Shown here piece by piece: positions 35,927 to 58,462 of a DNA stretch of 64,000 nt. Each line of letters starts with the position of its first letter. The first letter of the stretch is position 1. The notes under the pieces are model-generated. The model was given only the letters and a program-made list of their open reading frames with translations, did no database searches and was not told where the DNA came from. Position numbers and translations under genes: made by a program. This DNA comes from Candidatus Nanopelagicales bacterium (GTDB taxonomy: Bacteria; Actinomycetota; Actinomycetes; S36-B12), in NCBI GenBank assembly GCA_018609125.1, contig JABAYF010000003.1, positions 8,879 to 72,878 on the forward strand, read 5' to 3'.

Positions 35927-36877
35927 CTAGGCCCTCGGGTGCGCACCAAGGATCGTACGTGCGCGTTCGACATCATCGTTCATTTGCTGCACCAGACCAT
36001 CGATCGAGTCAAAAACCGCCTGACCGCGAATCCGTGCCACGAACTCAACCCCCACCGACTCGTCGTACAGATCAAGGGTGTGATCGTGAAGGCAATACAC
36101 CTCAACCGTGCGCGCGGTGCCATTGAACTGCGGGTTGGTGCCCACCGAGATCGCAGCCGGCAACACCGTCGTGTGCGGCGGGGTCCCGCGCAGCAGCCAG
36201 CCGGCATATACGCCATCGGGTGGGACCGCATACGGCAGGGACAGTTCAACGTTAGCGGTGGGGAAACCCAATTCGCGACCACGCTTCTCACCGTGAACCA
36301 CGGTGCCCTCTACGCGATGGGGTCGCCCGAGAGCCCGGGCCGCCCCGGGCAGATCACCGGCAGCGATACGTTCGCGGACGAAACTCGATGACCACGTCAC
36401 GGTGCCTTCATCGCGAACCTCCTCGGTCACCAATTCCACCACCTGGACGTTGAACCCACGTTCTTTGCCCAATTGGGTCAGGAGTTCGATATTGCCGGCT
36501 GCGTACTGGCCGAAGCGAAAATTCACACCGGCCACGATCACGTCCACCGGCACCGGGTTTTCGTGTTCGTCAACCACGTCGGCAACGATGGAGTCAATTA
36601 ACTGATCCACGAATTGTTCCGGTGACAGCGCGCTGAATTCGGGAGTGAATTCAATGACGCGCACATGGTCGGCGCCGGCAGCGTGCAGCAGTTTGACTCG
36701 GCGATCGATGCCGCTGAGCAGCAGCGGGGCTGATTCCGGCCGCAAAATGGCAGCAGGATGAGGATTGAACGTGACAATCGTGACGGGCCCGCCCTCTGAT
36801 CGTGCGATGGCCTGCTGAACAAGTGCCTGGTGGCCGCGGTGGACCCCATCGAAAACGCCGATCAACACAACATGCAC
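35927..36877 (-). CDS. ribF: bifunctional riboflavin kinase / FMN adenylyltransferase
   Basis: IGVFDGVHRGHQAL, GFPTAN and PQFNG motifs. 316 aa. Confidence 0.9.
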   Translation of the reverse strand: MHVVLIGVFDGVHRGHQALVQQAIARSEGGPVTIVTFNPHPAAILRPESAPLLLSGIDRRVKLLHAAGADHVRVIEFTPEFSALSPEQFVDQLIDSIVADVVDEHENPVPVDVIVAGVNFRFGQYAAGNIELLTQLGKERGFNVQVVELVTEEVRDEGTVTWSSSFVRERIAAGDLPGAARALGRPHRVEGTVVHGEKRGRELGFPTANVELSLPYAVPPDGVYAGWLLRGTPPHTTVLPAAISVGTNPQFNGTARTVEVYCLHDHTLDLYDESVGVEFVARIRGQAVFDSIDGLVQQMNDDVERARTILGAHPRA

Positions 36878-36952: not shown

Positions 36953-38086
36953 ATGGCATCACGTCTGGTACTGCACATCGGCACCCAAAAGTCAGGAACC
37001 ACCTATCTGCAGCGCGTCCTGGCACACCTCTCCGCTGAACTGAGCGATGCCGGCGTGCTTTACCCCACCCGGATAGGCGGACGGGGGCCGGTGTACAACC
37101 ACGAGGCGGCGGCCTATGGCCTACTAGGCACCGAGTCCTTCCCCTGGGTGTCCCCGGCACGAGCAACAGCCCAAGAGTCGGTGTGGTCGCGACTGGTCGA
37201 GCAGGTCCAGCAGTGGCCCGGGCCAGTTGTCGTTTCCGGCGAAGCTCTCTCGGTCGTGAATGCCGACGCAGCCCGACGCTTGGTGGAAGCCTTGGCCGTC
37301 ACTCCGACCGACATCATCATTACCGCACGCGATCTGGGGAGGGTAATTCCTAGTTCGTGGCAGCAACACATCCGCAATGGGCGCAGCACCACCTTCTCTG
37401 CCTATCTTCGCCAACTATCCCAACGGCGTGGAGCTTCCGCCGGTGAATCAACAAACGCGGAATGGGAACTCGACCCCGATCAGACTTTCTGGCGCGCGTA
37501 TGCGATCGGATCACTGGTCAACCGCTGGTCGCCGCTGGCTCGCAGCGTCACGGTCGTACCAGTGCCACGCGGTGGTGCTGACCCGCACGAACTGTGGCAG
37601 CGGTTTGCTACCTCCCTGGAATTAGGACATGTGCTTCCCCACATACCTCCACACATTGATTCGATCGGCGCAAACGTCGGCATCACCGAACCCGAAGCGC
37701 TCGTGCTGGCCGGATTGAATCGACAGTCTCGAAATTCTTCACTGACAGATCCGGCGCTCCGGCAATTGCGCGGCCGAATCGTGAAGGATGCCTTCGTGCC
37801 ACGGGCCGATCGCGGTAACCCGGTTCGCCTGCCCCCGGCGTGGCTTGACCAGGTTCGGGCATGGGCTGATGCCGATGTGAATGATCTCATGCGCACCGAC
37901 GCAAAAATTGTTGGTCCCGTCGAGGACCTTCGCGTCGATGCCTCCCTGCGGGCCGGTGTCTCAACGCCACCTCAGCAGGTGGCGTCAGCGGCAGGGGCAG
38001 CTCTCTACCTGCTCAATCAGCCGCCACCTGCCGAGGCACCAGCAGCTCCCACACGAAAAAAACGGCGCGGTCCCCGTAGCGGGTAG
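36953..38086 (+). CDS. sulfotransferase-fold protein, paralogue A
   Basis: LHIGTQKSGTTYLQRVL resembles the PAPS 5'-phosphosulfate loop (PKSGTTW). IIITARDLGRVIPSSW has the R-x7-S spacing of the 3'-phosphate motif. ATG 36953 is preceded by GGAAGGGA. It is a paralogue of 39136..40221. Confidence 0.6.
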   Translation: MASRLVLHIGTQKSGTTYLQRVLAHLSAELSDAGVLYPTRIGGRGPVYNHEAAAYGLLGTESFPWVSPARATAQESVWSRLVEQVQQWPGPVVVSGEALSVVNADAARRLVEALAVTPTDIIITARDLGRVIPSSWQQHIRNGRSTTFSAYLRQLSQRRGASAGESTNAEWELDPDQTFWRAYAIGSLVNRWSPLARSVTVVPVPRGGADPHELWQRFATSLELGHVLPHIPPHIDSIGANVGITEPEALVLAGLNRQSRNSSLTDPALRQLRGRIVKDAFVPRADRGNPVRLPPAWLDQVRAWADADVNDLMRTDAKIVGPVEDLRVDASLRAGVSTPPQQVASAAGAALYLLNQPPPAEAPAAPTRKKRRGPRSG

Positions 38087-38127
38087 CATTGCAAGGCTGT
38101 GCAACCACCGGCCCCTAGACTGCTGCC

Positions 38128-39126
38128 GTGCTGCTCGTCGTCTGTGGAATGCATCGATCCGGATCAACACTCGTTTGGCAGATCGCTCGCCATCTCGTGT
38201 CCGACCAGCCTGGCCTGCGCAACCCTCGCGGACTGTCAACGTCACAGTTCCCCGCCGCTGCGGCTGATTGTGACGACCTGCTGATGGCAAAAGTGCACTT
38301 TCGTCCCGCACTTGAACGCGATGACTTTCCGCAGGTGGGCGCAAAATATCTCTACACCTATCGCGATGTGCGCGATGTCATGGCGTCGCTTTACCGAAAA
38401 GGCCGCGCAAAGCCAGAGGATCCCGAACGCGGTCCTCGCAGTAGCAGGCTCGGTGCCCGACGCGAACTGCGCGGCGATACCTTCTGGCGATCGCGTGACT
38501 CGGTGTGGATCGGCAAGTACGAGCAATTCAAAGATGATGTGCCTCAACTAGTGCGAGACCTGGCCGACTTCCTTGAAGTGGATGTCACTAGCCAACGCGT
38601 AGACGCGATCGTGGCCGACGTAGACATGCAGGCCCAGCAGAGCCGCGCGGTTGACGCTAAGGCCCACGGGGTTGATGATGACCTTCGCGTCACCTCCAAC
38701 CACATCACCGATGGACGTATGGGCGCGTGGCGCGACACGTTGACCACCGAAGAATTGATCGCAATCGAAGCAGAAAGTGCCGGTTGGTTGGTGGAGCACG
38801 GCTATGAATTAGAGACCGCGGTGGGTAAACGTCGCGCCGCTCAAACCCAATCCGCCGACAGCGAAGCAGAGCCAGCACCAGATCTGCGTGAACACACTCA
38901 GCCCCAGGGCAACGATGTGAAACTCGGGGTACTAACGCTCGCTTCATCCGCCACGGCTGCAGGCGCCATGTTCACCACCCAGCGCAATTCCGGCGTATCG
39001 AATCTCCTGTGGGTGGCCGCGCTGCTGTCCACCAGTGCGCTGGCGTATCGACTAGGTCAGCAGCGTGTTGGGTTTGCGGCTGCTCCAGCGACCATCCTGT
39101 CTTCCCTTCGCTCCTTCGGTTCTTAG
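38128..39126 (+). CDS. PAPS-type sulfotransferase with C-terminal membrane anchor
   Basis: GMHRSGSTLVW (5'-PSB), YTYRDVRDVMASLY (3'-PB) and DGRMGAWRDTLTTEE (GxxGxW..LT) motifs. The C-terminal 90 aa contain two hydrophobic segments (LGVLTLASSATAAGAMF, LLWVAALLSTSALAY). GTG start, with an in-frame stop 12 nt upstream. Confidence 0.75.
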   Translation: MLLVVCGMHRSGSTLVWQIARHLVSDQPGLRNPRGLSTSQFPAAAADCDDLLMAKVHFRPALERDDFPQVGAKYLYTYRDVRDVMASLYRKGRAKPEDPERGPRSSRLGARRELRGDTFWRSRDSVWIGKYEQFKDDVPQLVRDLADFLEVDVTSQRVDAIVADVDMQAQQSRAVDAKAHGVDDDLRVTSNHITDGRMGAWRDTLTTEELIAIEAESAGWLVEHGYELETAVGKRRAAQTQSADSEAEPAPDLREHTQPQGNDVKLGVLTLASSATAAGAMFTTQRNSGVSNLLWVAALLSTSALAYRLGQQRVGFAAAPATILSSLRSFGS

Positions 39127-39135
39127 GACTAGGGA

Positions 39136-40221
39136 GTGGCCGCACGAATAGTCCTGCACATCGGACCCCGGAAGACAGCAACAACATATCTGCAGCGGTG
39201 CCTGGTGAAGTTGACCAGACGCGGCGTCATTGACCCCTCCGTTTACCCACTGAACTCTCGCGAGAAGGACGACCACAACCACGTCCCAGGCATGATTGAT
39301 CTCTTGCGCACCTACGATCAGATACCCCTACAAGATGACGCTTGGCGTCACCTCGATGGGCAGGCTGCATCAGCACTCATTGATCATGCACGACAGGCTT
39401 CGGGTCCGGTTATTTTCTCCGCCGAGGCTGTGGCCGCGACTCGACTGGCGGGTGCGCGAACGGTGATCGCGGCCTTTGCTCCCGCTGAAATCACCGTGGT
39501 TATTACTGCACGGCCGGTGGGCAGAGTGCTACCTAGCTCGTGGGCCCAGCACGTACGCAATGGCAACATCGAAACCCTGGAGAGTTATTTGGATCTGCGC
39601 CGTGCAGAACGTGCTCAGATGGCGACCCTAGAAACACGACCAGACCACGCATTCTGGCGCTCCTACGCATATGGGCACCTCGTTCGTCGTTGGCGCTCAG
39701 CCGGCGCTCGTGTCGTGGTCGCAACCGTGCCATCACATCCAAGTGATCCGAGTGAAATGTGGCGCCGCTTCGTCGCAGCGACAGGTCTCACCGATGTCCT
39801 ACCAGCAGATCCGCCGCGCATCAGCGACGCCAAAGCAAACGCGTCTCTCTCCCTCGATCAATCCCTTGCAATACAGGGCTTCAACGAGACTGCTCGAGCC
39901 GCCGGCCAGGATCGCAGATGGACGCGACGTGAGCATCGCCGGATGCTACGTCACGGGTTAAGGTCAGACCCTGAGCAAGCATTGCAGGACGGCATCCCCG
40001 AACACCTGCATGAACCAGTGCAGCAATGGCAGTTTGACGATGCCAACGACCTTTCGGTGACCGGCGTTGAAACTGTAGGGGATCTCGCTGACCTCACGGC
40101 GACACCGAAACCTGCACCTAGCGACGACGAGATGATTACTGCACTTACCGATACCGTCGGACGCGGTTTACTGGGCATGCAGGCCATGCACGCCACCTCT
40201 GATGAGAGCGTCGACTCCTAA
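39136..40221 (+). CDS. sulfotransferase-fold protein, paralogue C
   Basis: LHIGPRKTATTYLQRCL and VVITARPVGRVLPSSWAQHVRNG align with paralogue A (also FWRSYAYGHLVRRW versus FWRAYAIGSLVNRW). Acidic C-terminal tail. Confidence 0.55.
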   Translation: MAARIVLHIGPRKTATTYLQRCLVKLTRRGVIDPSVYPLNSREKDDHNHVPGMIDLLRTYDQIPLQDDAWRHLDGQAASALIDHARQASGPVIFSAEAVAATRLAGARTVIAAFAPAEITVVITARPVGRVLPSSWAQHVRNGNIETLESYLDLRRAERAQMATLETRPDHAFWRSYAYGHLVRRWRSAGARVVVATVPSHPSDPSEMWRRFVAATGLTDVLPADPPRISDAKANASLSLDQSLAIQGFNETARAAGQDRRWTRREHRRMLRHGLRSDPEQALQDGIPEHLHEPVQQWQFDDANDLSVTGVETVGDLADLTATPKPAPSDDEMITALTDTVGRGLLGMQAMHATSDESVDS

Positions 40222-41306
40222 CCACGTTGAGTTGGTTGGCTCCACTCCTGCAATTGAGATACGAAGCGCACCCCGTCATTCGCCCAGTTCATGTGCGTCG
40301 TCACCCATTCGCGACCCGTGTCGGCAAATGTTTGGCCCAGCGCCGGATCGGCGCGCCATCGTCGAACGATGTCAACGACGGCATTCGTGTCACCAAACCC
40401 AACAACTTCGCCGCCACCGGAATCTTCAATCAGTGCCTTGGTTACCGGGAGGTTCGTGGCGATCACCGGCACACCGTGAGCAAGGTACTCCATGATCTTG
40501 GTCGGGCGTGAGTGCCGATAGTTGGGTTCATCGTGGAGCAACGCCAACCCGGCGATGGCCCCCTCAATCATGGCAAGGGCCTGCTCATTGGCCACATATC
40601 CGTGCCAAATCACCTCTCCACGTTCCTGGGCGGCTCGAACAGGTGCCGTCATTTCCCTATCTACAGAACCAATCAAATGAACCGACACTTCGCCATGTAG
40701 TTGCTGAGCAACTTCTAGCATCTCTACGCCGCCACGGGCACGGGTCACGTGACCCACGTAGACGATGCGATCACCGCCAACGGCGGGAACCACCGCAGGC
40801 ACCGTGGTTGAGTTCGGGATCACCGGATGTGAATCGTGGAACCGCTGCTGATAACTATGTTCAGCAAGCAATAGGTGATAGTGGGCCTCTGCTCGCAATT
40901 CCATCCGGCGGGCAAGCTGCTGCGTGATTGATCGAAGCGGTTTGGGTATCCAACCCTTAAGGCTAATTGACGCGGGCAGGTCTTCGTGCACGTCCCACAC
41001 GATGCACCGGTGCGTCAGTGTTGCGACCGCAAGCAGCAATTCAGGTGAATGCAGCAGCAACACGTCGTGATCGGGCGCCATTTTTCGCAATGTGCGGGTA
41101 GCCGCCACAAGGGCGGAGAACCTATGTCGTCCGTGTGCAGCAGGTACATCCACGCACTCCACACCCGGCATCGGCGTCACCCCGAAGTGTTGAAAGGGTG
41201 CCAGGTAGGTCACCCGGTGGCCGGCGGCGAGGAGGCTGGCGATTTCGCGTGCCGCTATACGCGCATCCCGCGGGTCGTGAACCACGGTGGCCACCAGAAC
41301 ACGCAT
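40218..41306 (-). CDS. glycosyltransferase family 4
   Basis: MRVLVATVVHDPRDARI N-terminus. C-terminal RPTKIMEYLAHGVPVIATN (GT-B donor-binding helix). The ATG shares one base with the upstream ABC ATPase stop (TAATG). Confidence 0.75.
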   Translation of the reverse strand: MRVLVATVVHDPRDARIAAREIASLLAAGHRVTYLAPFQHFGVTPMPGVECVDVPAAHGRHRFSALVAATRTLRKMAPDHDVLLLHSPELLLAVATLTHRCIVWDVHEDLPASISLKGWIPKPLRSITQQLARRMELRAEAHYHLLLAEHSYQQRFHDSHPVIPNSTTVPAVVPAVGGDRIVYVGHVTRARGGVEMLEVAQQLHGEVSVHLIGSVDREMTAPVRAAQERGEVIWHGYVANEQALAMIEGAIAGLALLHDEPNYRHSRPTKIMEYLAHGVPVIATNLPVTKALIEDSGGGEVVGFGDTNAVVDIVRRWRADPALGQTFADTGREWVTTHMNWANDGVRFVSQLQEWSQPTQRG

Positions 41307-42238
41307 TATGCGGGATTCGCATCCGCGGCCTGATCCACCGCTTCGTGTCCAGGCCGGTCCTCTCGGCGCTGGCGACGGCGATCCTTGCGGCCCTTCTTCG
41401 ATTGCAGGCCATATCTTTTCTCATAGGCTGGCACGACTTCAAGCGGATCGCCGTCGGCAATAATCTTGCCTTCATCAAGCCATATCACCCGATCGCAAGT
41501 GGCTCGAATCGACGACATGGAATGACTTACCAAAAAGATGGTGTCCGCTTCATCGCGCAACTGCTGAATCCGCTCGGTACTGCGACGCAGAAACTCACCA
41601 TCGCCGGTGGCAAGGGCCTCATCAATCAACAAGATATCGTGGGTAACCGACGAAGCGATGGCAAATTTTAGTCGAGCACCCATGCCTGAGGAGTAGGTGC
41701 GCATGGGCATGTGAATTGCTTCGCCGATGCCACTGAACTCCACGATGTCGTCATAGAGATGTTGAATGTGGTCAGGACGCAGCCCGAGGGCGAGCAATCC
41801 AAGTTCGATATTCCGGCTGCCCGAAAGCGCCTGGATGAGTGCCGAACTCACCCCGAGGAGTGTCGGCTGGGCATCGGCATAGACAGCGCCGGACGCGGCC
41901 GGCAAAAGACCTGCAATAGAACGCATCAACGTGGACTTACCAGATCCGTTTTTCCCAATAACTCCGATCGCTTCACCCTGGCGGGCAACAAAACTCACCC
42001 CGCGCAAGGCCTGGACTTCGTGCATGACCGCGATCGGCCGCCGTCTAATTGCACGTGCGATTCGGTTCTTGCGCCGCCCGTCAGTGTGGCGTGGTTTGGG
42101 AGTAGCCCACACTCGATAAGACACATGTAAATCATCAACAACGATTTTGATGTCGCCAAGTTTGCGGTCAACAAAGGCAACGCCATCGTCGGTGTCCTCA
42201 GGCTCCGCTATGTCATGGAAATCATCTTCAGTTGCCAC
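41306..42238 (-). CDS. polysaccharide/teichoic-acid-type ABC exporter, ATP-binding subunit (Wzt/TagH-like)
   Basis: Walker A GKNGSGKST, signature YSSGMGARL, Walker B ILLIDEAL. GTG 42238 was chosen, giving an 11-nt overlap with the permease. The ORF maximum is 42346. Confidence 0.85.
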   Translation of the reverse strand: MATEDDFHDIAEPEDTDDGVAFVDRKLGDIKIVVDDLHVSYRVWATPKPRHTDGRRKNRIARAIRRRPIAVMHEVQALRGVSFVARQGEAIGVIGKNGSGKSTLMRSIAGLLPAASGAVYADAQPTLLGVSSALIQALSGSRNIELGLLALGLRPDHIQHLYDDIVEFSGIGEAIHMPMRTYSSGMGARLKFAIASSVTHDILLIDEALATGDGEFLRRSTERIQQLRDEADTIFLVSHSMSSIRATCDRVIWLDEGKIIADGDPLEVVPAYEKRYGLQSKKGRKDRRRQRREDRPGHEAVDQAADANPA

Positions 42239-43112
42239 GGCCGTACCTATTCTCCGCCCGCCAGAAGTACCACACACCGAAGATCCCGATCCCAAAACTC
42301 CACGCGGCGGCCGCCGCCCAGTTCGCTGCTCCACCGGGAGCGTCATAGGTGTTCATGAGGGCGTCGCGCATGATGTTCAGGTACACGGTGCCGGGATTAA
42401 TCTCAATAATGACCACCGCCCACGGAGGTGCGCCGAGTCGATCAAGTCGGTCCGCGATCGGAATCATGACGCCGGATGCGTAGCCCCAGAGCCGCAAAAA
42501 GTAGGGCATCACATCAGCAACATCTTGAACTGCGGCTACCACGCGCGCCATAATCATGGCCATTCCAACGGCGAATAGCGTGATGAGGGCCAACGCCACC
42601 GGTGCGAGAAGCCAATTCCAGGTGATGCGCTCTCCGGTAATAAGCAGGATTCCCAGCATGATTGGAATGGACACCGCAAAAACACGCAACTGCTTGTATA
42701 CGATGGCCAAGGGCAGCACCGCGCGTGGAAAGTGAATTGCGCGAACCAACCCAACATTGCCGGAAATACTTCGTGATCCAGCTGTAACTGATTGGCGAAT
42801 CAGGGCGAATGAAAAAACTCCCACTGCCAAGAAACCAGTGTAGTTCTCGACACTTCCGCGACCGCCCAGCAAGAACCCGAACAAGAACCAGTAAATCGCC
42901 ATGGTGAATACAGGGTCTAGGACCTGCCACAGTTGACCGAGGCGACTTCGGGAGTTCTCCGCCTCCACCTTGGCCGAGGCGAAAGCCCTGATGAACGCCC
43001 GCCGCTGCCAGGTTGCACGCAGGTAGCGGAAGAACGGTGGGCGCTGGTTAACAAGTTCAAGGCCTGACTCAGCGGCAAGGGCTGCACCCGTTATTGCCCG
43101 GCCACCCTCCAT
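42228..43112 (-). CDS. ABC-2 type exporter permease (Wzm/TagG-like)
   Basis: 294 aa, 6 TM helices, N-terminal FFRYLRATWQRRAFIRAFASAKVEAENSRSRLGQLWQVLDP, typical of ABC-2 polysaccharide permeases. Confidence 0.8.
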   Translation of the reverse strand: MEGGRAITGAALAAESGLELVNQRPPFFRYLRATWQRRAFIRAFASAKVEAENSRSRLGQLWQVLDPVFTMAIYWFLFGFLLGGRGSVENYTGFLAVGVFSFALIRQSVTAGSRSISGNVGLVRAIHFPRAVLPLAIVYKQLRVFAVSIPIMLGILLITGERITWNWLLAPVALALITLFAVGMAMIMARVVAAVQDVADVMPYFLRLWGYASGVMIPIADRLDRLGAPPWAVVIIEINPGTVYLNIMRDALMNTYDAPGGAANWAAAAAWSFGIGIFGVWYFWRAENRYGRGN

Positions 43113-43114
43113 AA

Positions 43115-44386
43115 TCAGAGTCGAACCGCCGATGAATGAGATGTCACCCCGCGGGTGTCCAAGAACAAGGTGGCGGCTGCCGCCAGCGCATCAACGTCGT
43201 ACACACGATGATTCTGCAGCAGGACACATACGTCAGCAGAGACCACCGCAGCGTCGATATCAGCGTGGACGTCTAACGTGGACTCGCCCAATTGCCACTG
43301 CTGCACGTAGGGATCGTGGAAGATCACCTCAGCGCCCTTGTCCATTAATTCAACGGCAATGGGTTTGGCCGGGGACTCCCGTTGATCGGCGATGTCTGGC
43401 TTATAGGTGACGCCGAGCAGGCAGACTCGGATGCCGCGCAACGGCTGACCGGCCTCGTTGAGTAGATCCTGGATGCGCCGCACCACGTAGGCAGGCATGC
43501 CGGCGTTGATTTCCTGGGCCAACTCTACGAACCGGAACGGGTACCCCAACTTTGCCTGCACCTGGTAGGACAGGTAGTTGGGGTCAATCGGGATGCAGTG
43601 CCCACCAACACCGGGGCCGGGGTAAAAGGCCTGAAAACCAAAGGGCTTGCTTTTCGCCGCCTCGATGACGTCCCACAAATCGATGTCCAATTCATGACAG
43701 AACCGAGCCATTTCATTGACCAGGGCAATGTTGATGTGGCGGTACGTGTTTTCTAGCAACTTCGCCATCTCCGCCTCGCGTGTCCCTCTCGCCTCCACCA
43801 CCGTATCGACGAATCGGCGGTAAAAATGTGCTGCGGCAGCGGTGCACGCCGGTGTGTGCCCCCCCACGACCTTGGGGGTGTTCCGCATACCGAAAGTGGC
43901 ATTGCCCGGATCAATGCGCTCAGGGCTGAACGCCAGGAAAAAGTCTCGACCGGCGATGAGTCCGGTAGCCTCTAAAATGGGGCGCACCTCATCGTCGGTT
44001 GTTCCCGGATAGGTCGTTGACTCCAAAACCACGAGTTGGCCCCGGTGCAGGTGGGAAGCGATATTTCCCGTGGCACCCAACACGGCTGCGAGGTCGGGCC
44101 CGCCTTCGGGCGTTAACGGGGTGGGCACGCAAATGACAACGGTTGCTGCGCCAGCAAGAACGGCGGGATCCGTCGAGGCGGTGAATCCGGCATCGCGCAT
44201 GACTTCAATGTCAGCGTCACTGAGATCATCCACATGGCTGCGTCCGGCGTTGAGACCATCAATAACATCGGTGGACAGGTCATAGCCAACAACACGCAAA
44301 CCCGCCTCGGTGGCCGCTTGAGCCAGTGGCAGGCCGACATAGCCCATTCCGATGACGACGAGATCGCACGGATCGTGGACCGTCAT
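43115..44386 (-). CDS. nucleotide-sugar 6-dehydrogenase (UDP-HexNAc dehydrogenase family)
   Basis: VVIGMGYVGLPLA Rossmann N-terminus and catalytic GVGGHCIPIDPNYL. ATG 44386 is preceded by AAAGAGG. Confidence 0.85.
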   Translation of the reverse strand: MTVHDPCDLVVIGMGYVGLPLAQAATEAGLRVVGYDLSTDVIDGLNAGRSHVDDLSDADIEVMRDAGFTASTDPAVLAGAATVVICVPTPLTPEGGPDLAAVLGATGNIASHLHRGQLVVLESTTYPGTTDDEVRPILEATGLIAGRDFFLAFSPERIDPGNATFGMRNTPKVVGGHTPACTAAAAHFYRRFVDTVVEARGTREAEMAKLLENTYRHINIALVNEMARFCHELDIDLWDVIEAAKSKPFGFQAFYPGPGVGGHCIPIDPNYLSYQVQAKLGYPFRFVELAQEINAGMPAYVVRRIQDLLNEAGQPLRGIRVCLLGVTYKPDIADQRESPAKPIAVELMDKGAEVIFHDPYVQQWQLGESTLDVHADIDAAVVSADVCVLLQNHRVYDVDALAAAATLFLDTRGVTSHSSAVRL

Positions 44387-44467
44387 ACCGATGCCTCTTT
44401 CGTGTGAATCGCGACCTAGGTCGGGGGGTGAATCCGGCTGGACCGTGTTCTTAGCCACGATCCATAC

Positions 44468-46138
44468 TCAATAACCCAAAGCAGCGTACGCGTTGGCGTA
44501 CCCCGACATCACCTGAGGCCAGGTTCGACACGCCGCAACCCACTCTTTGGCCGCCACCCCGTGCCGTCGGCGAAACTCCGGCTCGGCGTAGCCAGCCAGT
44601 GCCTCAGCCCATGCCTCAGCCGAGAAATCGCCCGCGATGGTGGACCCAGGGGCCAAGGTTTCGCGAACCGCGGGCAGGTTTGAACCCACCACGGGCACGC
44701 CGCGTGCCTGTGCCTGCACCGGCTTCAAGGCAGTAACCCAGCGGGTGAGATCAGAGTCAATGCGCGGCAGGGTCAGCACATCCAGCGTGTCGAAGTACTG
44801 GCGCACCTGGTCAAGACCAACCCGACCCGGGGAAACCAGGGGCACGTGGCGCTCTCGCGCTAGTTCCCGCCACCGCGCCAATTCAGGCCCCTCACCCACC
44901 AGCAGCACCACCACGTTGAGGCCCTGACCGCGAAGTATCGCCGCGGCATCGATGGTGGTGGCCAAACCTTCGTAGGCATACATCGTGGTCACCGAGCCGA
45001 TGACCAGGTCTGCCTGCGCATACGGGCCCAGGATGGAGACGCGATTCTCCGATGGGAAAGCGGTGAGGAAATCGATGTCGACTCCGTTGGGGACGACGAA
45101 TACGCGCTCGGGAGGCACTCCTCGTTGCACAACGTGATCGCGCATGGATTCACCCAGCGTCGTCACCACATCGACCGAGCGCAATACCTGCGTGTGCTGG
45201 GCCCGCAGCCACCGAAACATGTCGGTTTCCTCCGCCTGCTTACCGCCGTGTCCTGCCGCCCAGGTGTGCTCGAAAAAGGTCCGGACTTCATAGGCCACCG
45301 GGATCTGCAGCGCCCGACCAGCCGCGAGTGCTGTCCGACCGTTCATGGCATCGGATGCCCCATGAATAACATGGGGACGCAGCCGTCGAGCGAGTTGAGT
45401 CAGGTGCTTCTCATAGGCTTTTTCAAACCGATCGGAAGCCGGTAAATGCGTTGGCAGCAGTCGGTGATAGGGCACCGTGTCAACGGTGTGATGGTTATCG
45501 GCTGCGATGTCGCCGTGAAAGACCGGGAATCCAAGCCTGGTCACCACCTGGGCATCCCAGCCACACGCACGCTGCGAAGCCGCGACCTGCTGCGTTCGGA
45601 TTGTTGATCCGGCCTGGACTCGGGGCAGGGAGTTCGTGACGACATGCAGAATCGATAGTGGCTGGTCAGTCTTGGCAGCAACGGTTGGGGCTGGAGAAGC
45701 GGCAGCGGTCCACGTGGGCACAGCAGCCCGGGCCAGCCGACTCACCCGTCGAGCAGACGTGATCACCCGCATTCTTCGGCGGCTACCTCGACGCGGGAGG
45801 GCGGCAACCTCATTGACCTGGCCCGACAGCAGGGCAGCAGCGAGCTGAGCAGAATCGTCTGCCGGGTTCTGCGCGGTGAGCGTGGGTAGTAGCGCCATGG
45901 CTCCGGCATAGTCATCCCCCGCAACAGCCTGGTCGAAACGACCTTGAGCATTTGCGGCAGGCCATGGCGAACGTAGCGTGGGTACCGCACGCTGGAGAGC
46001 CATCACTGCGCGTCGGGGATCCTCAGCGAAACGCTGCCATGCCCCGGACGCCACGAGGGGCAGGTGGCGCACGGCGCGAGACAGGGCACGCACGCGAGAA
46101 AACGCACGGGGAGGCGGGTTCGACGGTTCAACGGTCAC
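44468..46138 (-). CDS. glycosyltransferase family 4 with ~160-aa non-GT N-terminal extension
   Basis: The GT4 core begins at LSILHVVTNSLPRVQAGSTIRT. C-terminal LKPVQAQARGVPVVGSNLPA. The upstream 160 codons are open and Ala/Arg-rich. The exact start is uncertain. Confidence 0.75.
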   Translation of the reverse strand: MTVEPSNPPPRAFSRVRALSRAVRHLPLVASGAWQRFAEDPRRAVMALQRAVPTLRSPWPAANAQGRFDQAVAGDDYAGAMALLPTLTAQNPADDSAQLAAALLSGQVNEVAALPRRGSRRRMRVITSARRVSRLARAAVPTWTAAASPAPTVAAKTDQPLSILHVVTNSLPRVQAGSTIRTQQVAASQRACGWDAQVVTRLGFPVFHGDIAADNHHTVDTVPYHRLLPTHLPASDRFEKAYEKHLTQLARRLRPHVIHGASDAMNGRTALAAGRALQIPVAYEVRTFFEHTWAAGHGGKQAEETDMFRWLRAQHTQVLRSVDVVTTLGESMRDHVVQRGVPPERVFVVPNGVDIDFLTAFPSENRVSILGPYAQADLVIGSVTTMYAYEGLATTIDAAAILRGQGLNVVVLLVGEGPELARWRELARERHVPLVSPGRVGLDQVRQYFDTLDVLTLPRIDSDLTRWVTALKPVQAQARGVPVVGSNLPAVRETLAPGSTIAGDFSAEAWAEALAGYAEPEFRRRHGVAAKEWVAACRTWPQVMSGYANAYAALGY

Positions 46139-46182: not shown

Positions 46183-47289
46183 ATGACTCTGCTGCACATT
46201 ACTGGCGCTCGACCCAATTTTCCCAAGGCGGCTCCAGTCATCGCGGCTCTGGCGGAATTGGGGGTCCGCCAGCGCTTAGTTCACACCGGTCAGCATTATG
46301 ACGACCGCATGTCTGAAGTCTTTTTTCGCGAATTGAGTCTGCCTCAACCTGACGTGAATCTAGGCGTGGGGTCAGGCTCCCATGCCCAGCAAACGGCTGC
46401 CCTCATGATCGGCCTGGAAGAGGAAATTCTCTCGACCGAACCACAGTTGGTCATCGTCTATGGCGATGTGAACTCGACCCTGGCTGCGGCCATCGTCGCT
46501 GCCAAGCTGGGCGTTCCCTTGGCTCACGTGGAGGCCGGGCTGCGAAGTTTCGACATGTCGATGCCCGAAGAAATCAACCGGTTGGTCACCGATGCACTTG
46601 CCGACCTCCTCTTCGTGACCAGTCCGGATGCTATTGCTCACCTTGCTCGAGAAGGCGTGCCGGAAGGCAAGATTCACCTGGTGGGCAATCCCATGATCGA
46701 CACGCTCCTGGCGCAACTGCATCGCCTCAATGTAGATCAGGCCCGTCAAAACATCGGCGTGGGTGTCGACTACATCGTGGCAACCTTGCACAGGCCGGGC
46801 AATGTGGATGACCCACAGGTAGCAGCAGACCTGGTCGCCGTGGTTCACGAAGCAGCCGGCATCGCCGACATTGTGCTTCCGCTACACCCTCGCGGCAGAG
46901 CGGTACTTGAAGCTCTCGGCATCGGCGACCATCCGCGCGTTCACGTGGTGGAGCCCCTCGGCTATATCGACTTCATGTCGCTCGTACGTGGATCCCTCGC
47001 GGTCATTACTGATTCTGGCGGGGTGCAGGAAGAAACGACGGTGCTCGGTGTCCCCTGTTTAACGCTGCGGCCCAACACTGAACGCCCCGTCACTATTAGT
47101 CACGGCACCAACCAGTTGGTCACTACTCATTCGCTCCCTGCCGCACTCGCCGAGCAGGTGGCGCTACGCCGAGAACAACCCGACCGCCTTGCTCCACCTA
47201 CTCGCATCCCACCGCTGTGGGATGGTCATGCGGGCGAACGAATCGCACACCTGATCGTTGACTGGCTCGACGATCGGTACGCCCGATGA
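46183..47289 (+). CDS. wecB: UDP-N-acetylglucosamine 2-epimerase (non-hydrolysing)
   Basis: ITGARPNFPKAAPV, HTGQHYD, GDVNSTLAAA, HVEAGLRSFDMSMPEEINR. ATG 46183 is preceded by GAGAGG. Confidence 0.9.
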   Translation: MTLLHITGARPNFPKAAPVIAALAELGVRQRLVHTGQHYDDRMSEVFFRELSLPQPDVNLGVGSGSHAQQTAALMIGLEEEILSTEPQLVIVYGDVNSTLAAAIVAAKLGVPLAHVEAGLRSFDMSMPEEINRLVTDALADLLFVTSPDAIAHLAREGVPEGKIHLVGNPMIDTLLAQLHRLNVDQARQNIGVGVDYIVATLHRPGNVDDPQVAADLVAVVHEAAGIADIVLPLHPRGRAVLEALGIGDHPRVHVVEPLGYIDFMSLVRGSLAVITDSGGVQEETTVLGVPCLTLRPNTERPVTISHGTNQLVTTHSLPAALAEQVALRREQPDRLAPPTRIPPLWDGHAGERIAHLIVDWLDDRYAR

Positions 47290-48998
47290 CACCGGAAGAA
47301 GAATTCGCGCCAGCCGTTGAACCGGAGCGGGTGGCGCGCGTCACCGAAGAAAATGCTCGACTACGGATGGAACTAAGACACGCCAACGCCCGAGCGCAGC
47401 GTTTCGAAGCTGATGCTCGTCGGGTTCGAGCGTCAACTAAGTACACCGTGGGTGACCTTCTGGTTCGGGGGGCCAAGGATCCGCGTCGGCTGTTTCTTCT
47501 TCCACGCGAGTTACTCAGCCTCTACCGCCTGCGCAAACATCGACGTACCGCCAGCGAAGTAGCACTCACAGAAGTCACTCGGGCTCACCGCAGCGATTTG
47601 TCTAACGAACATGCCGCACGCCTGCTACTTCCACGTATCGGTGCCGCCGCCGATGCTTCGGTGAGCGTCGGTGGTGCGCTGAGCCGCACTACCGAACAAC
47701 TCCTGCAGCCCTATGCCGCGACCACCTCGGTACTCCCTCATGATGCCGCCGCACTCATCATGGACGCTGATCCCGATATCGTTTTCGTGGATACCGCAGC
47801 TGGCCTACCTGGCGAATCGTGGTCACACCTGGGCAACCCGGCGGCAACCGATCGGGCGCTGGCCGCCTTCGATCTGGTGACCGCGGCCAGAGAGCGAGGC
47901 CGCCCGGTCGTGATGCTGCGCAATAGCTCACCCGGTCACACAGCCGGCCTCGTTGGCATTATCGATCGATGCGATCTCGTGGTCGATGCAACCCACTCAG
48001 TTCGGGAGAACGTATGGCTGCCCGGCACCCGGTTGGACTGGTGGAATGGGCAACAGCCAGCCGATCTTGATACTCCTCGACAGCACCGGCCACTGCTCAC
48101 GGTTAGCGGTGGCGACACCAGCGGACACGTCCGAGCGTGGGCTCTTAGCCGCGGCGTAGAACCGGTCAACGTGCGCCCGCAGGCCCCACCCATCGGTGCG
48201 CTCCGGGAAGCGATAGCACTGGCCGATTTTTTCGTCGACACACAGCCGGGCACTTCCAAGCGCGTCGGCGGTTCAGCTGCCATGTGGGCCGCCCTGGTGG
48301 CGGGGCTACCCATCGTGAGTAGAGACACACACGAACTACGCTCGGTGCTAGGCGAACTCGTTGAGCCACAGCACGGCATCGTCTATCACTATGGGTCTGA
48401 ATCAGACCTCGATAACACTCTCAACGCCGCGCAAACGGGCCCGGCAAGGTCCTTGGCCACCCACTGGCAGGTGTTGCGCCGCATTGCCTTGCGCCATACC
48501 GCCCCGGTCACCCTGACCGATCTTGCCCAACGCCTCCATCTATCGATCACAGCCGGTGCGTGCCGAGGCATCGCCGTGATCGTTGACGCCGAAATCACTG
48601 CCGACCGACTGGTTGAACAATTACTCGCACAAACGTTGCGACCAGCCGAAATTGTTGTCCGAGGCAGGATCGGTGATCGCTTGCGTGACCAAGTGCTGCA
48701 GTTACACATTGACGTGATCGACGCATCCGGTGACATCGCGCACATCGCTCAGCGCACGACATCAGCTTGGATCGCTCAGGTACATTGCCCGTCCACGGTG
48801 ACCCTGCCAGCAGATCTCCTTCTCGATGCAATGATCAGCGTTGAAATCAGCCAAGCCAACCAAGTTCAGCTGGGTCACTTGGAGCCTGGTGACCTACAAA
48901 ACAACACCGGTGTGCATCTGCTCCGGCGCAGCGTCGCTCTCGGCGACGCCTCCGCACCCCTGACCATCGCTCCTCCACACCCTGGTTGGCACACATGA
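47286..48998 (+). CDS. hypothetical protein: N-terminal coiled coil plus degenerate GT-like regions
   Basis: Residues ~15-50 (VARVTEENARLRMELRHANARAQRFEADARRVRAS) look like a coiled coil. The middle region GGSAAMWAALVAGLPIVSRDTHELRSVLGE resembles a GT-B donor helix without the acidic residues. IAVIVDAEITADRLVEQLLAQTLRPAEIVVRG resembles a GT-A N-terminus without the DxD context. ATGA-coupled on both sides. Confidence 0.5.
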   Translation: MTPEEEFAPAVEPERVARVTEENARLRMELRHANARAQRFEADARRVRASTKYTVGDLLVRGAKDPRRLFLLPRELLSLYRLRKHRRTASEVALTEVTRAHRSDLSNEHAARLLLPRIGAAADASVSVGGALSRTTEQLLQPYAATTSVLPHDAAALIMDADPDIVFVDTAAGLPGESWSHLGNPAATDRALAAFDLVTAARERGRPVVMLRNSSPGHTAGLVGIIDRCDLVVDATHSVRENVWLPGTRLDWWNGQQPADLDTPRQHRPLLTVSGGDTSGHVRAWALSRGVEPVNVRPQAPPIGALREAIALADFFVDTQPGTSKRVGGSAAMWAALVAGLPIVSRDTHELRSVLGELVEPQHGIVYHYGSESDLDNTLNAAQTGPARSLATHWQVLRRIALRHTAPVTLTDLAQRLHLSITAGACRGIAVIVDAEITADRLVEQLLAQTLRPAEIVVRGRIGDRLRDQVLQLHIDVIDASGDIAHIAQRTTSAWIAQVHCPSTVTLPADLLLDAMISVEISQANQVQLGHLEPGDLQNNTGVHLLRRSVALGDASAPLTIAPPHPGWHT

Positions 48999-51235
48999 CT
49001 CGAACCCGGCGCGCCCTCGTCTATGCCGATGTGAACCTCAACATCTTGGATGGTTCAGCGATTTGGGTCCAATCGATGTGTGAGGCCCTTTCGCAAGCCG
49101 GCGTGGATACGCAGGTGTTACTCAAAGCACCGGTACTCACCGATCGACTTGTGGCTCCGCTGCGCGCCATGCCTGGCGTCACCGTCGTGGACCCCTTCGT
49201 CGACGGACTTGTCGGTAACGATGATGCCCTCTCCCCGGCACAGGCTGCTGACATCTTGCAGACACTCGATGACCGGCTGCGGGTCGATGTCATCGTTGTC
49301 CGGGGCTTGCGCCTTGCCGTAACCGCATCATCCCGCGAACAACTACACGGACGCTTGTGGACCTATCTCACCGATATTCCCCACGATGTCACCGGACTCA
49401 CCGACTCGGTGGTTGATCAACTCGTAATAGTCGCCGAAGCCAGTCGATACCTGTTGTGCCAGACCGAACAATTGCGGTCCTTCCTCGAAGCGGTGATCCC
49501 TGCAGCGGCGGGCAGATGTGTGCTGTGGCCACCGATCGTTCCCGAACCTGACTTCGAAATCGTCCCGCGCACCCCTCTCTTCGACGAATCCACCGGCAGG
49601 CCGAACCGCCCGATCCAACTGGCCTACACCGGAAAGTACGCCGCACGTTGGAATACCCTGGAAATGACCGAGATACCCCAATTGCTAAGCGAACATGGCA
49701 TCAACGCGGAACTGAACATGGTCGGTGACAAGGTGCATGATGAGCCGGATATTCCCGGCTGGTCTGATCGAATGACGGCTGCCCTACGCAACACTGCGGG
49801 CATCACGTGGCACGGTGGGGTGAGCAGGCAGGAGGCTATGCGACTATCGGCACAGGCCGACATCGGTTTGTCGTGGCGCACTGCGGACATGGATGCGAGC
49901 CTGGAACTTTCCACCAAGGTATTGGAATTCGCTCGCCTTTCCGTTCCCGTCATGCTTAACCGCACCCCCATGCACGAAGACCTTTTCGGTGCTGACTACC
50001 CGCTTTTCGTTGCCGATGCCGACGACATCGTGCAGATCTTGACCAACACCACCGGACTATCCGACACCCTCACGCGAGCAACCGCGTTGGCCTATCGTGG
50101 TGTGAGCGCACACCTGATGAATTCGGCGGTGCACCGCCTCCAAGAACTCCTCCGGCGGGCGTTACCCGATGCTCCGCCATCACATGCGGCATTTGCCGCC
50201 CCGCTGAAGGTTCTTGTCGCCAGCCACGATCTGAAGTTCTTCAGTCGACTACAAGAACATCTGGGGGCTCTCCCCAGCGTTGAACTCCGTATCGACCACT
50301 GGCCCGCTCTCGCACAGCACGATGAAGAGGTCAGTAAAGATCTTGCCTCGTGGGCCGATGTTGTTATTTGCGAATGGGCCGGGCCAAACCTGGTGTGGTA
50401 CAGCAAGAACAAGACGCCTGGGCAACGCCTCGTTACCCGCCTACACCGATTCGAACTCAGTGCAGGGTGGCTAACCGATGTCGAGATCGCCAACGTCGAT
50501 CAAGTGATTTGCGTCAGCCCCTACTACGCTCAACTCACGGCCCAAACAACTGGATGGCCGAGTGGAAAGATCGTGGTGATTCCCAACTGGGTAGATCTCG
50601 AACAGTTCCAGCGCCCCAAACTCGCTGGCGCACAGTTCACCCTCGGCATGATCGGAATCTCACCGGTTCGTAAACGTCCCGACATCGGCATCGACGTGCT
50701 CTCTCGATTGCGTCGCTACGACGCACGATTCACCATGGCGGTAAAGTCCAAAATGCCCTGGGACTACTGGTGGATCTGGCGCAAGCCAGAGGAGCGCATC
50801 GATACCGAACGACTCATGGGCCGAATCCGTGATGACCCCACCGTTCACGATGCCGTTTCCTTCGATGGTTTCGGGGGTGATGTCGCGGCGTGGTTGCGTC
50901 GCGTGGGCTGGGTGTTATCGACTTCTGAGGATGAAAGTTTCCATCTCGCCCCAGCCGAGGGCATGGCATCGCACGCGGTGCCCTGTCTGCTGCCCTGGCC
51001 TGGAGCCGACACCATTTACCACCCTCGATGGATTAGTCAGACGGCACAGGCCATGGCCGAAAAGATTTTGGACATCACCGAAGCAGGTACCTGGGAGCAG
51101 ACTGCCGAAGAGGCCTTCAAGCAGGTACGCGCATCGTTCCCGCTGACCGACGTAGCACGAATGTGGACTGAAGTTCTCACGACCGATGTGGATCCAGCAA
51201 CAGCTCAAGTTCCGCTCTACCCTACCGACGAGTGA
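48995..51235 (+). CDS. two-module glycosyltransferase (tandem GT4-like domains), candidate polymerase
   Basis: Module 1: VYADVNLNILDGSAIWVQSMCEAL ... ELSTKVLEFARLSVPVML. Module 2: LKVLVASHDLKFF ... EDESFHLAPAEGMASHAVPCLL (E-x7-E). ATG 48995 overlaps the upstream stop (ATGA). Confidence 0.7.
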   Translation: MTRTRRALVYADVNLNILDGSAIWVQSMCEALSQAGVDTQVLLKAPVLTDRLVAPLRAMPGVTVVDPFVDGLVGNDDALSPAQAADILQTLDDRLRVDVIVVRGLRLAVTASSREQLHGRLWTYLTDIPHDVTGLTDSVVDQLVIVAEASRYLLCQTEQLRSFLEAVIPAAAGRCVLWPPIVPEPDFEIVPRTPLFDESTGRPNRPIQLAYTGKYAARWNTLEMTEIPQLLSEHGINAELNMVGDKVHDEPDIPGWSDRMTAALRNTAGITWHGGVSRQEAMRLSAQADIGLSWRTADMDASLELSTKVLEFARLSVPVMLNRTPMHEDLFGADYPLFVADADDIVQILTNTTGLSDTLTRATALAYRGVSAHLMNSAVHRLQELLRRALPDAPPSHAAFAAPLKVLVASHDLKFFSRLQEHLGALPSVELRIDHWPALAQHDEEVSKDLASWADVVICEWAGPNLVWYSKNKTPGQRLVTRLHRFELSAGWLTDVEIANVDQVICVSPYYAQLTAQTTGWPSGKIVVIPNWVDLEQFQRPKLAGAQFTLGMIGISPVRKRPDIGIDVLSRLRRYDARFTMAVKSKMPWDYWWIWRKPEERIDTERLMGRIRDDPTVHDAVSFDGFGGDVAAWLRRVGWVLSTSEDESFHLAPAEGMASHAVPCLLPWPGADTIYHPRWISQTAQAMAEKILDITEAGTWEQTAEEAFKQVRASFPLTDVARMWTEVLTTDVDPATAQVPLYPTDE

Positions 51236-51243
51236 AGACGACC

Positions 51244-52146
51244 TCACCCGCTGGGAAACACCGCGCAGTAGTGCAATCGACCCTCTATTGATTCACCGAT
51301 CGCGAGCAAGCGCTGGTTGTGTACGAGCGCGGTGGCAGTGGCAGACAGCGTGTCTCCGGGCCACGGTATACGCGTGCCATGACTAATGGCCAACGCGGTG
51401 TCGGAGTCAATCTGGCACACCGGCAGCGAACGACTAGCGGCTTCTGCAGGGGACATTAACAACTTGGCTGCCTCCACCGGTGTCAACTTTTCCCACTCCG
51501 AGAGTGACTGTGCCTCAGCCAAGGTGAAGGCTCCGGAGGTGGTGCGGCACAGTGACGTCAGATGACCACCCACACCGAGTAACGCGCCGGTGTCGCGGGC
51601 TATCGCACGGATGTAGGTGCCAGCCGAACACCGAACATGAATCTCTACGTCTACGGTGTCGCTCCCCCGGGTGACCTGACCGAGTCTGAGTTCGTGGATT
51701 GTGACGGTTCGAGGCTCCAGTTCCACCTGTTCCCCCGCCCGCACCCGCGCGTAGGCACGCTTGCCGTCAACCTTTACGGCACTGACCGAACTGGGCACCT
51801 GGTTGATCGTGCCCACGTTGCTGGCGAACGCGGCCTCAATCTGGGCCTGGGTGAGCGAAGCGGTGGATTCTGCGGCGGTCTGGTTGCCTTGCGCATCGTC
51901 AGTGTCCGTGGACTGACCTAGTCGTACGGTTGCGACGTAACCCTTATCGTCCCTGGTGAGATAACCAAGGAGTCGAGTGGCCTGCCCTACACCAAGCACC
52001 AGCACCCCGGTGGCATCAGGATCAAGCGTTCCGGCATGGCCAATCTTCTTCATTCCCAGGGTTCGCCGTGCCCTTGAGACCACCGCATGGGAACTCATGC
52101 CCGCCGGCTTGTCGATAACGACAACACCGATCGGGCTATTCAGCAT
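51244..52146 (-). CDS. truB: tRNA pseudouridine(55) synthase
   Basis: GVVVIDKPAGMSSHAVV and GHAGTLDPDATGVLVLG (catalytic Asp). Start set at MLNSPIG (52146), an 11-nt overlap with rbfA. Confidence 0.9.
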   Translation of the reverse strand: MLNSPIGVVVIDKPAGMSSHAVVSRARRTLGMKKIGHAGTLDPDATGVLVLGVGQATRLLGYLTRDDKGYVATVRLGQSTDTDDAQGNQTAAESTASLTQAQIEAAFASNVGTINQVPSSVSAVKVDGKRAYARVRAGEQVELEPRTVTIHELRLGQVTRGSDTVDVEIHVRCSAGTYIRAIARDTGALLGVGGHLTSLCRTTSGAFTLAEAQSLSEWEKLTPVEAAKLLMSPAEAASRSLPVCQIDSDTALAISHGTRIPWPGDTLSATATALVHNQRLLAIGESIEGRLHYCAVFPSG

Positions 52147-52567
52147 CTTCGCTTGGGTGCCGATACGGATCGGTTTCGCCTGCGTACTGCGCCCCACTGG
52201 CCCGTGCCGATAGTTCTGCATCCGACTGCGCAGCCTGCTGGAGAAGTTCATCGATATGGCGAGCCGTATCCGGCAATGCATCCAAGATGAACGTCAGCGA
52301 TGGCGTGTGCTTAATGCCCGTTTGGCGGCCCACTTCCGTGCGCAGCACCCCTTTGACTGATTCAAGGGCGATAGCCGACGCACCACGCTGCTCATCATCA
52401 CCGAAGACTGTATAAAACAGCGTTGCTTCGCGCAGGTCGGCGGTGACCCGAGCATCGGTAATGGTCACAAAGCCCATGCGCGGGTCCTTTACTTGGAACT
52501 CAAGCGCCTGGGCAACAATGACTTTGATGCGTTCAGCTAACCGTCGAGCACGTGCCTCCGAGGCCAT
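52136..52567 (-). CDS. rbfA: 30S ribosome-binding factor RbfA
   Basis: RARRLAERIKVIVAQALEFQVKDPRMGFVTITDARVTADLREATLFYTV. Confidence 0.9.
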   Translation of the reverse strand: MASEARARRLAERIKVIVAQALEFQVKDPRMGFVTITDARVTADLREATLFYTVFGDDEQRGASAIALESVKGVLRTEVGRQTGIKHTPSLTFILDALPDTARHIDELLQQAAQSDAELSARASGAQYAGETDPYRHPSEDAE

Positions 52568-58076: not shown

Positions 58077-58462
58077 GTGGGGCACTAGAACAGGTCATCC
58101 AGGGCGAGGAAGCTGCCGTCTACGCATACGGCCGCGCAGCACCATACCTTTCGGGGGCAGAAAACGATCGAGTTCGAGGTGGCCTCGTTGCCCACCAACA
58201 ACGTGTCACAGCGCTGCGCGCGGAACTCAACGTTCAATCTCAGCCGCAGGCACCACTGGGCTTTGAGGTACCTCAGGTCATTGACGGTGGTACCGCCCGA
58301 TCGCTACTCGGCGAGGTTGAGGCAAGACTTTCTGCGCAGTACGCGGACCTAGCCGCGGCCAGCACGGGTGACCAACGAAGGGAAGCCGTTCTCATCGCGA
58401 GAGAATGCGCGGTTCGAAGCATCACGTGGGGCGCTGCGCCACAACCGTTTCCTGGCCGTTAG
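58073..58462 (+). CDS. ferritin-like DUF4439 protein
   Basis: ATGA-coupled to the previous gene. ALEQVIQGEEAAVYAYGRAAPYL is typical of DUF4439 (from memory). Confidence 0.6.
   Translation: MSGALEQVIQGEEAAVYAYGRAAPYLSGAENDRVRGGLVAHQQRVTALRAELNVQSQPQAPLGFEVPQVIDGGTARSLLGEVEARLSAQYADLAAASTGDQRREAVLIARECAVRSITWGAAPQPFPGR

Follow-up and report, generated by a model that had tools for sequence, protein, structure and literature searches.

Sulfated polysaccharides are considered rare in bacteria. In rhizobial surface glycans (KpsS; Sinorhizobium LpsS with nodPQ), sulfate is added by a cytoplasmic sulfotransferase that depends on 3'-phosphoadenosine-5'-phosphosulfate (PAPS) and has a dedicated PAPS supply, and in Mycobacterium tuberculosis CysD and a fused CysN-adenosine 5'-phosphosulfate (APS) kinase supply PAPS to sulfotransferases whose acceptor is trehalose or a lipid. 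To our knowledge, the known teichuronic acids are not sulfated. Sulfated capsules have been described in marine Vibrio and Cobetia (PMC11641403, PMC11766843), Mesorhizobium loti KpsS has been named as a polysaccharide sulfotransferase (PMC11625862), and a paper from 2026 treats bacterial sulfated polysaccharides as essentially cyanobacterial and predicts one for an actinomycete (PMC13390465). Here we describe three adjacent genes, referred to as A, B, and C, at positions 36953-40221 of a 64-kb stretch of DNA (the window) from the genome of a freshwater actinobacterium labeled Candidatus Nanopelagicales, an order for which a literature search on sulfotransferases found no paper. The genes stand at one end of a glycan biosynthesis cluster, and we consider it moderately likely that they form a sulfotransferase operon tailoring an envelope glycan that is exported by an ATP-binding cassette (ABC) transporter.

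Sequences and predicted structures of genes A, B, and C

All three open reading frames (ORFs) are intact and lie on the plus strand, separated by intergenic gaps of 41 nt (A/B) and 9 nt (B/C).

36953-38086, plus strand: gene A, 377 amino acids (aa); sulfotransferase-like P-loop family with no characterized member; K13-S-G-T-T PAPS-type loop, S95-x-E97, R126, S134
38128-39126, plus strand: gene B, 332 aa; Sulfotransfer_1 (PF00685); R10-S-G-S-T, K55-x-H57, R79-x3-D83-x3-S87, G196-x2-G-x-W-R202
39136-40221, plus strand: gene C, 361 aa; accessory paralog of A; loop K-T-A-T-T, all family-invariant residues kept

The start of A was placed at the ATG at 36953 and not at the upstream GTG at 36830, as 30 homologs share the N-terminal pattern MA-x-R-L-x-L-H-I-G. 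The protein matches NCBI MFY9220200.1 ("hypothetical protein WAO40_06660") with 100% identity; this entry comes from a metagenome-assembled genome (MAG) labeled Candidatus Nanopelagicales, and B corresponds to MFY9220201.1, which NCBI already annotates as "sulfotransferase domain-containing protein." The G+C content is ~60% across the whole window, and a scan for promoters and terminators gave counts no different from the shuffled expectation.

Gene B is a new member of PF00685. It matched this model with 53.5 bits (E value of 2.9e-14; gathering cutoff of 22) over model positions 5-239 of 255, and the domain was present in 120/120 B homologs among the matches listed. An initial annotation of this DNA had ascribed three hallmark motifs of PAPS sulfotransferases to the middle gene, and all three strings are there: GMHRSGST (residues 7-14, nt 38146-38169), YTYRDVRDVMAS (residues 76-87, nt 38353-38388), and GRMGAWRDTLT (residues 196-206, nt 38713-38745). 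Across 16 homologs, K55, H57, R79, D83, and S87 are invariant, the loop residues R10, S11, G12, S13, and T14 (H-R-S-G-S-T) are conserved in at least 90%, and the segment G196-R-x-G-A-W-R202 is invariant except at x. As G196-x2-G199-x-W201-R202, this segment aligns residue for residue with the RKGxxGxWK motif of the amine sulfotransferase 7v1o, and by pattern, K55/H57 may correspond to the Lys106/His108 pair of the cytosolic sulfotransferases (SULT), with H57 as the putative catalytic His. The 3'-phosphate-type motif reads R79-D-V-R-D83-V-M-A-S87. Polysaccharide sulfotransferases have been defined in a review by an R-x3-D-x3-S motif together with a Lys/Arg loop, Arg being accepted in place of Lys (PMC11625862), and B, with the motif and an Arg in the loop, matches this definition. 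From its profile score and motifs, B is predicted with high confidence to be a canonical PAPS-type sulfotransferase.

The part of B beyond residue 235 consists of a variable linker and then two segments of weak hydrophobicity (residues 264-284 and 288-307; Kyte-Doolittle value of ~1.36), a pattern that is kept among the homologs although the sequence is not. The two segments are separated by a conserved R-N-P turn (residues 264-332, window positions 38917-39126) and could possibly form a membrane-associating hairpin.

The flanking genes had been described in the initial annotation as paralogs that carry a loop like the phosphosulfate-binding loop of sulfotransferases and an ITAR-type segment. 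Both observations are borne out. A and C are 34% identical over 327 residues (BLASTP, E value of 3e-52), and the quoted strings are present in A (HIGTQKSGTTYLQ, residues 8-20, nt 36974-37012; ITARDLGRVIPSSW, residues 123-136, nt 37319-37360) and in C (HIGPRKTATTYLQ, residues 8-20, nt 39157-39195; ITARPVGRVLPSSW, residues 123-136, nt 39502-39543). Their family is covered by no Pfam or NCBIfam model, and a profile search against 1.84 billion cluster representatives (50%-identity clusters) gave it 11,777 clusters at E ≤ 1e-3 and 1,422 at E ≤ 1e-30. In 52 divergent members, H8, G10, K13, Q20, S95, E97, and R126 are invariant, and G15, T16, and T17 are each found in 49/52. The loop of A, G10-T-Q-K-S-G15-T16-T17, departs from the Walker A pattern GxxxxGK[ST], the position of the Walker Lys being Thr in 49/52 members, and the family loop G-x4-G-T-T places its Lys two residues ahead of the Gly, which is the sulfotransferase arrangement. 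C has Ala at loop position 15, like Stf0.

Profile comparisons connect this family to the known sulfotransferases at one remove. Matches below threshold were obtained to Sulfotransfer_3 in 23/30 family members and to Sulfotransfer_1 in 8/30, while kinase families matched 0/30. Two relatives with two domains score above threshold: residues 402-547 of P0260 match Sulfotransfer_3 with 38 bits (cutoff of 27), and residues 397-598 of this protein align to residues 4-224 of A (E value of 6e-24); residues 415-578 of P0296 match Sulfotransfer_1 with 25.3 bits (cutoff of 22), and the same region aligns to residues 7-220 of A (E value of 3e-13). A and C are linked transitively to the sulfotransferase models because these relatives pass the cutoffs inside the A-homologous region.

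AlphaFold models of A and C (pLDDT of 92-95) contain four parallel strands with the loop after strand 1, R126 closing strand 3 and S134 on the next helix, followed by a helical C-terminal domain of ~150 residues. A fold search places both models in the P-loop kinase/sulfotransferase superfamily, without preference for sulfotransferases. The strongest candidate for a general base is E97, which is invariant and lies where strand 2 ends. H50 was considered as a catalytic base and was rejected, since this position is Gln in 25/52 family members. A (residues 362-377, window positions 38038-38086) and many of its relatives end in an Arg/Lys-rich tail, e.g., TRKKRRGPRSG, which might bind the membrane or an anionic polymer.

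The glycan locus and the neighborhoods of A-family genes

A block of 14.3 kb, flanked by ribF and truB, has A-B-C at its left end. The following genes (including glycosyltransferases [GTs]) were recognized in it and at its borders.

35927-36877, minus strand: ribF, left boundary of the inserted glycan locus
40218-41306, minus strand: GT1/GT4-type glycosyltransferase, convergent with C with a 4-nt overlap; weak TuaC/TuaH-type similarity among the GTs of the locus
41306-42346, minus strand: ABC transporter ATPase (TagH/Wzt-like), ABC_tran; no C-terminal carbohydrate-binding domain
42228-43112, minus strand: ABC-2 permease (Wzm/TagG-like), ABC2_membrane
43115-44458, minus strand: nucleotide-sugar dehydrogenase; best equivalogs UDP-N-acetylmannosamine (UDP-ManNAc) dehydrogenase, below cutoffs
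44468-46138, minus strand: GT4 glycosyltransferase, 556 aa
46156-47289, plus strand: wecB, nonhydrolyzing UDP-GlcNAc 2-epimerase; equivalog cutoff passed
47286-48998, plus strand: 570-aa protein; matches neither Pfam nor NCBIfam models, conserved in related loci (37-39% identity)
48986-51235, plus strand: 749-aa protein with two glycosyltransferase-like regions
51244-52281, minus strand: truB, right boundary of the locus

The assignment of an ABC-dependent glycan locus made in the initial annotation holds, and the ribF-truB block is a lineage-conserved, ABC-transporter-dependent cluster for the biosynthesis of a cell envelope glycan. The wecB gene scored 292 against an equivalog cutoff of 210. 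The dehydrogenase passes a generic subfamily model alone, the UDP-ManNAc dehydrogenase equivalogs giving 248-255 bits against cutoffs of 459-750, and for Wzt and Wzm the best NCBIfam matches, to TagH and to the galactan Wzt/Wzm, are likewise under the equivalog cutoffs. From this gene content, the glycan probably contains N-acetylmannosaminuronic acid (ManNAcA). No LCP or TagO/WecA genes were found within the locus, and it holds no ligase. A sulfate cap that terminates the chain would be possible and was considered, but it is unsupported since Wzt lacks the C-terminal binding domain. The listed Wzt ORF shares 119 nt with the Wzm ORF, and ~100 N-terminal residues precede its ABC domain; the true Wzt start is probably further downstream. 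The 570-aa protein has no clear transmembrane segment.

The gene order ribF|A|B|(C)|GT1|Wzt|Wzm|dehydrogenase|GT4|wecB is kept in ~30 species-level MAGs labeled Nanopelagicales, which have a G+C content of 60-73% and A proteins 49-67% identical to that of the window. A and B were found in every related locus where the extent of the contig permits. C was found in 20 distinct loci and is missing from 11/31 informative related loci (L021, L024, L025, L027, L030-L032, L034, and L036-L038), in which GT1 lies directly 3' of B. The trio is a core pair, A and B, plus an accessory duplication, the paralog C. The same MAG lineage has a further A-type paralog, ~40% identical, between glnA and glnE and away from glycan genes, a context which gave no functional clue.

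L085:10001-11173 and L086:751-1923 (also in L058, L062, and L073): A-family paralog between glnA and glnE

Other members of the A family are found beside genes of sulfate activation and in other clusters for wall glycans.

L043:7190-15892: cassette adjoining purK-purE; glycan exporter genes together with cysD-cysNC and an A-family gene
L087:10001-22265: tandem two-domain A-family proteins of 754 and 773 aa, in a cluster with two Acyl_transf_3-SGNH genes

L043 is a freshwater Actinomycetota MAG (55% G+C) whose A-family protein is 41% identical to A. The gene for this protein divergently adjoins cysD, which is followed by a fused cysN-APS kinase gene (APS_kinase E value of 2.4e-63). Next after the A-family gene come genes for a UDP-glucose dehydrogenase, a GT2, a GT1 with 44% identity to that of the window, Wzt (61%), and Wzm. 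The order cysNC-cysD/A-family gene/dehydrogenase recurs in L089, where the A-family protein is 77% identical to that of L043. In L090 (75%), cysNC-cysD still adjoins the A-family gene, and cysD is again the neighbor of a relative that shares only 47% identity with the protein of L043. Coupling of an A-family gene to genes for PAPS synthesis was observed in two related lineages (L043, L089, L090, L092, and L093) and not within the window. In actinobacterial sulfate assimilation, as in M. tuberculosis, APS is reduced directly. The adjacency of A-family genes and cysD-cysNC is meaningful because the APS kinase then serves sulfation and not assimilation, and loci of the L043 type are compact candidates for a "sulfated glycan" cassette. 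Two-domain relatives lie in a teichoic acid-like cluster with genes for GT2, Glyphos_transf, Acyl_transf_3-SGNH, and GtrA proteins, and another adjoins a GlfT2-like gene.

A proposed role in glycan sulfation and its alternatives

We propose that the A-B-C operon would encode tailoring enzymes of the neighboring glycan. B would act as an O-sulfotransferase of the cytosolic SULT type with PAPS as its donor and may sit at the membrane via its C-terminal hairpin. A and C would form a divergent, unmodeled branch of the sulfotransferase superfamily and would most likely transfer sulfate from PAPS too, with K13 of the K-S-G-T-T loop and R126/S134 holding the nucleotide and E97 serving as general base. 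Each of the three enzymes would sulfate positions or residues of its own on a lipid-linked polymer, at the cytoplasmic face of the membrane and before export by Wzm/Wzt. The polymer may be bound to the wall, as a teichuronic acid would be, or may be a capsule or a lipoglycan. It is fairly likely that the neighboring glycan is the acceptor, and the cell surface probably bears a sulfated polysaccharide.

It may instead be that B is the only sulfotransferase and that A and C are P-loop kinase-like enzymes which phosphorylate a glycan or its precursors, or noncatalytic accessory proteins which bind nucleotides, although we regard this as unlikely. A number of results do weigh against a sulfotransferase function for A and C. 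Profile searches had been suggested as a check in the initial annotation; B passed Sulfotransfer_1, but A reached only 15.4 bits on Sulfotransfer_3 (PF13469), under the cutoff of 27, C matched no Pfam sulfotransferase model, and neither protein had an NCBIfam match. An hhalign comparison of the A/C family with the B family gave a probability of <1%, the alignments being confined to the loop or to the Arg-Ser segment. PDB sequences yielded no sulfotransferase when searched with A and C themselves or with three profiles of the family (A1, A3, and A5, the last built from intermediate sequences). The best Foldseek matches for both models were adenylate kinases, shikimate kinases, and GPN-loop GTPases (all with TM scores of ≤0.45), with the sulfotransferases CurM-ST (4gbm) and TPST1 (5wrj) in 9th and 31st place. 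The structural check put forward in the initial annotation does find sulfotransferases among the matches, but nucleotide kinases match at least as well, and the comparison is nondiscriminating. The Arg-to-Ser spacing of +8, which had been equated with that of the 3'-phosphate-binding motif of cytosolic sulfotransferases, is genuine in A and C (R126 and S134); however, position 134 is Ser in 34/52 family members and Ala in 18/52, while R126 is invariant, and the correspondence is weaker than supposed. The earlier count of three sulfotransferases stands for B on its profile and motifs, whereas A and C fall below every Pfam cutoff and C is missing from some of the related loci.

A kinase function, for its part, does not agree well with a loop in which Thr replaces the Walker A Lys and a Lys occupies the sulfotransferase position, nor with the absence of matches to kinase families among members that often resemble Sulfotransfer_3, the relatives that pass sulfotransferase cutoffs in the A-homologous region, and the repeated occurrence of the A family next to cysD/cysNC. 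Because of the motif logic, the profile signal, and the genomic association taken together, A and C are favored as sulfotransferases, and we predict this function as likely. By sequence, they are nearest to the Sulfotransfer_3 enzymes (NodH, TPST, and CurM-ST), in which membership failed by score, and they constitute a family of their own. We suggest, tentatively and with less confidence than for the two proteins themselves, that this is a very large, unrecognized family of glycan sulfotransferases embedded in loci for cell wall glycopolymers.

A second alternative, which we consider quite unlikely, is that A, B, and C sulfate another target, such as a membrane lipid, a glycolipid, or a quinone (compare mycobacterial Stf), and that the adjacency to the glycan cluster is incidental. 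A-B-C forms its own transcription unit, which converges on that of GT1-Wzt-Wzm, and the tail of B may associate with the membrane. In Actinomadura and Streptomonospora, members of the family occur singly, in unrelated surroundings that offer no functional clue, and the paralog between glnA and glnE is also outside glycan loci. Against this, the same adjacency to glycan genes is kept in ~30 species with the identity of A down to 50%, and the A family recurs in other wall-glycan clusters.

The supply of PAPS has also to be accounted for if the glycan is sulfated by these enzymes. No cysDN, cysC, cysH, or cysQ genes were found in the 64-kb window by profile scans or tblastn. The tblastn queries were approximate E. 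coli CysC, CysD, and CysQ sequences; they gave nothing in the window and matched only L043, where Pfam confirmed the matches. Cultivated Nanopelagicales, which have a G+C content of 40-51%, lack assimilatory sulfate reduction (PMC12817590, PMC5301498). It is nevertheless very unlikely that the lineage cannot make PAPS and that A, B, and C are intact relics or use another donor, as three intact ORFs with every invariant residue, conserved in many species, argue for selection, the source lineage at 60% G+C is unlike the cultivated strains, and a related lineage has cysD-cysNC beside its A-family gene. Elsewhere in the window, 7 kb from the locus, there is a gene for a TauE/SafE protein, a sulfite-exporter-type anion transporter (58459-59181, minus strand).

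A conserved, ABC-exported, probably uronic acid-containing glycan with two or three sulfotransferase genes in ~30 species would give these cells a strongly anionic, sulfated surface, which would influence phage adsorption, grazing, metal binding, and the export of organic sulfur in lakes. A large protein family without a Pfam model gains a testable function, and loci of the L043 type are candidates for heterologous reconstitution. If the A/C family does consist of glycan sulfotransferases, sulfation of wall polysaccharides would be a common trait of Actinomycetota, among them widespread freshwater plankton, and sulfated polysaccharides would not be nearly exclusive to cyanobacteria and a few Proteobacteria.

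Comparison with described sulfotransferases and glycan loci

Among the characterized enzymes, those of Sulfotransfer_1 (e.g., 7v1o) are like B in the cutoff passed, the loop, K-x-H, R-x3-D-x3-S, and GxxGxW(K/R); B differs in having Arg and not Lys in the loop, a C-terminal extension of ~100 residues, and a place in a bacterial glycan locus. Sulfotransfer_3 (NodH, TPST, the CurM domain, and mycobacterial Stf) is the closest profile to A, C, and their relatives, and CurM-ST and TPST1 match the models, whereas A and C differ from it in their sub-cutoff scores, their ~150-residue helical C-terminal domain, and an invariant set of their own in which W136 is listed together with H8, Q20, and S95-x-E97. 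The cysDNC/Stf0 system of M. tuberculosis has the same fused CysN-APS kinase architecture that adjoins the A-family genes of L043 and L089; the window has no cysDNC, and the sulfotransferase family of Stf0 differs from those of A, B, and C.

At the level of whole loci, the rhizobial systems belong to Proteobacteria with an outer membrane and use a single enzyme of another sulfotransferase family, while the locus described here comes from a Gram-positive lineage and has two or three enzymes, drawn from two families. The cyanobacterial synechan (xss) and Actinoplanes missouriensis wps-1 clusters are likewise glycan clusters with two sulfotransferases of different families. For wps-1, the sulfated exopolysaccharide is only predicted, and an adjoining sulfate adenylyltransferase/APS kinase gene matters for the phenotype (PMC13390465). 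That cluster uses a Wzx/Wzy pathway (PMC13390465), in contrast to the ABC transporter and the unmodeled A/C family found here. With the loci for teichuronic acid (Bacillus tua; the ManNAcA-Glc polymer of Micrococcus luteus), the locus shares wecB, a UDP-ManNAc dehydrogenase-like gene, GT4/GT1 genes with weak similarity to TuaC/TuaH, and a TagH-like exporter, although an equivalog cutoff is reached by wecB only and no ligase is encoded in the locus. None of the compared systems joins an ABC exporter, a ManNAcA-type supply, and an A/C-type family in an actinobacterium.

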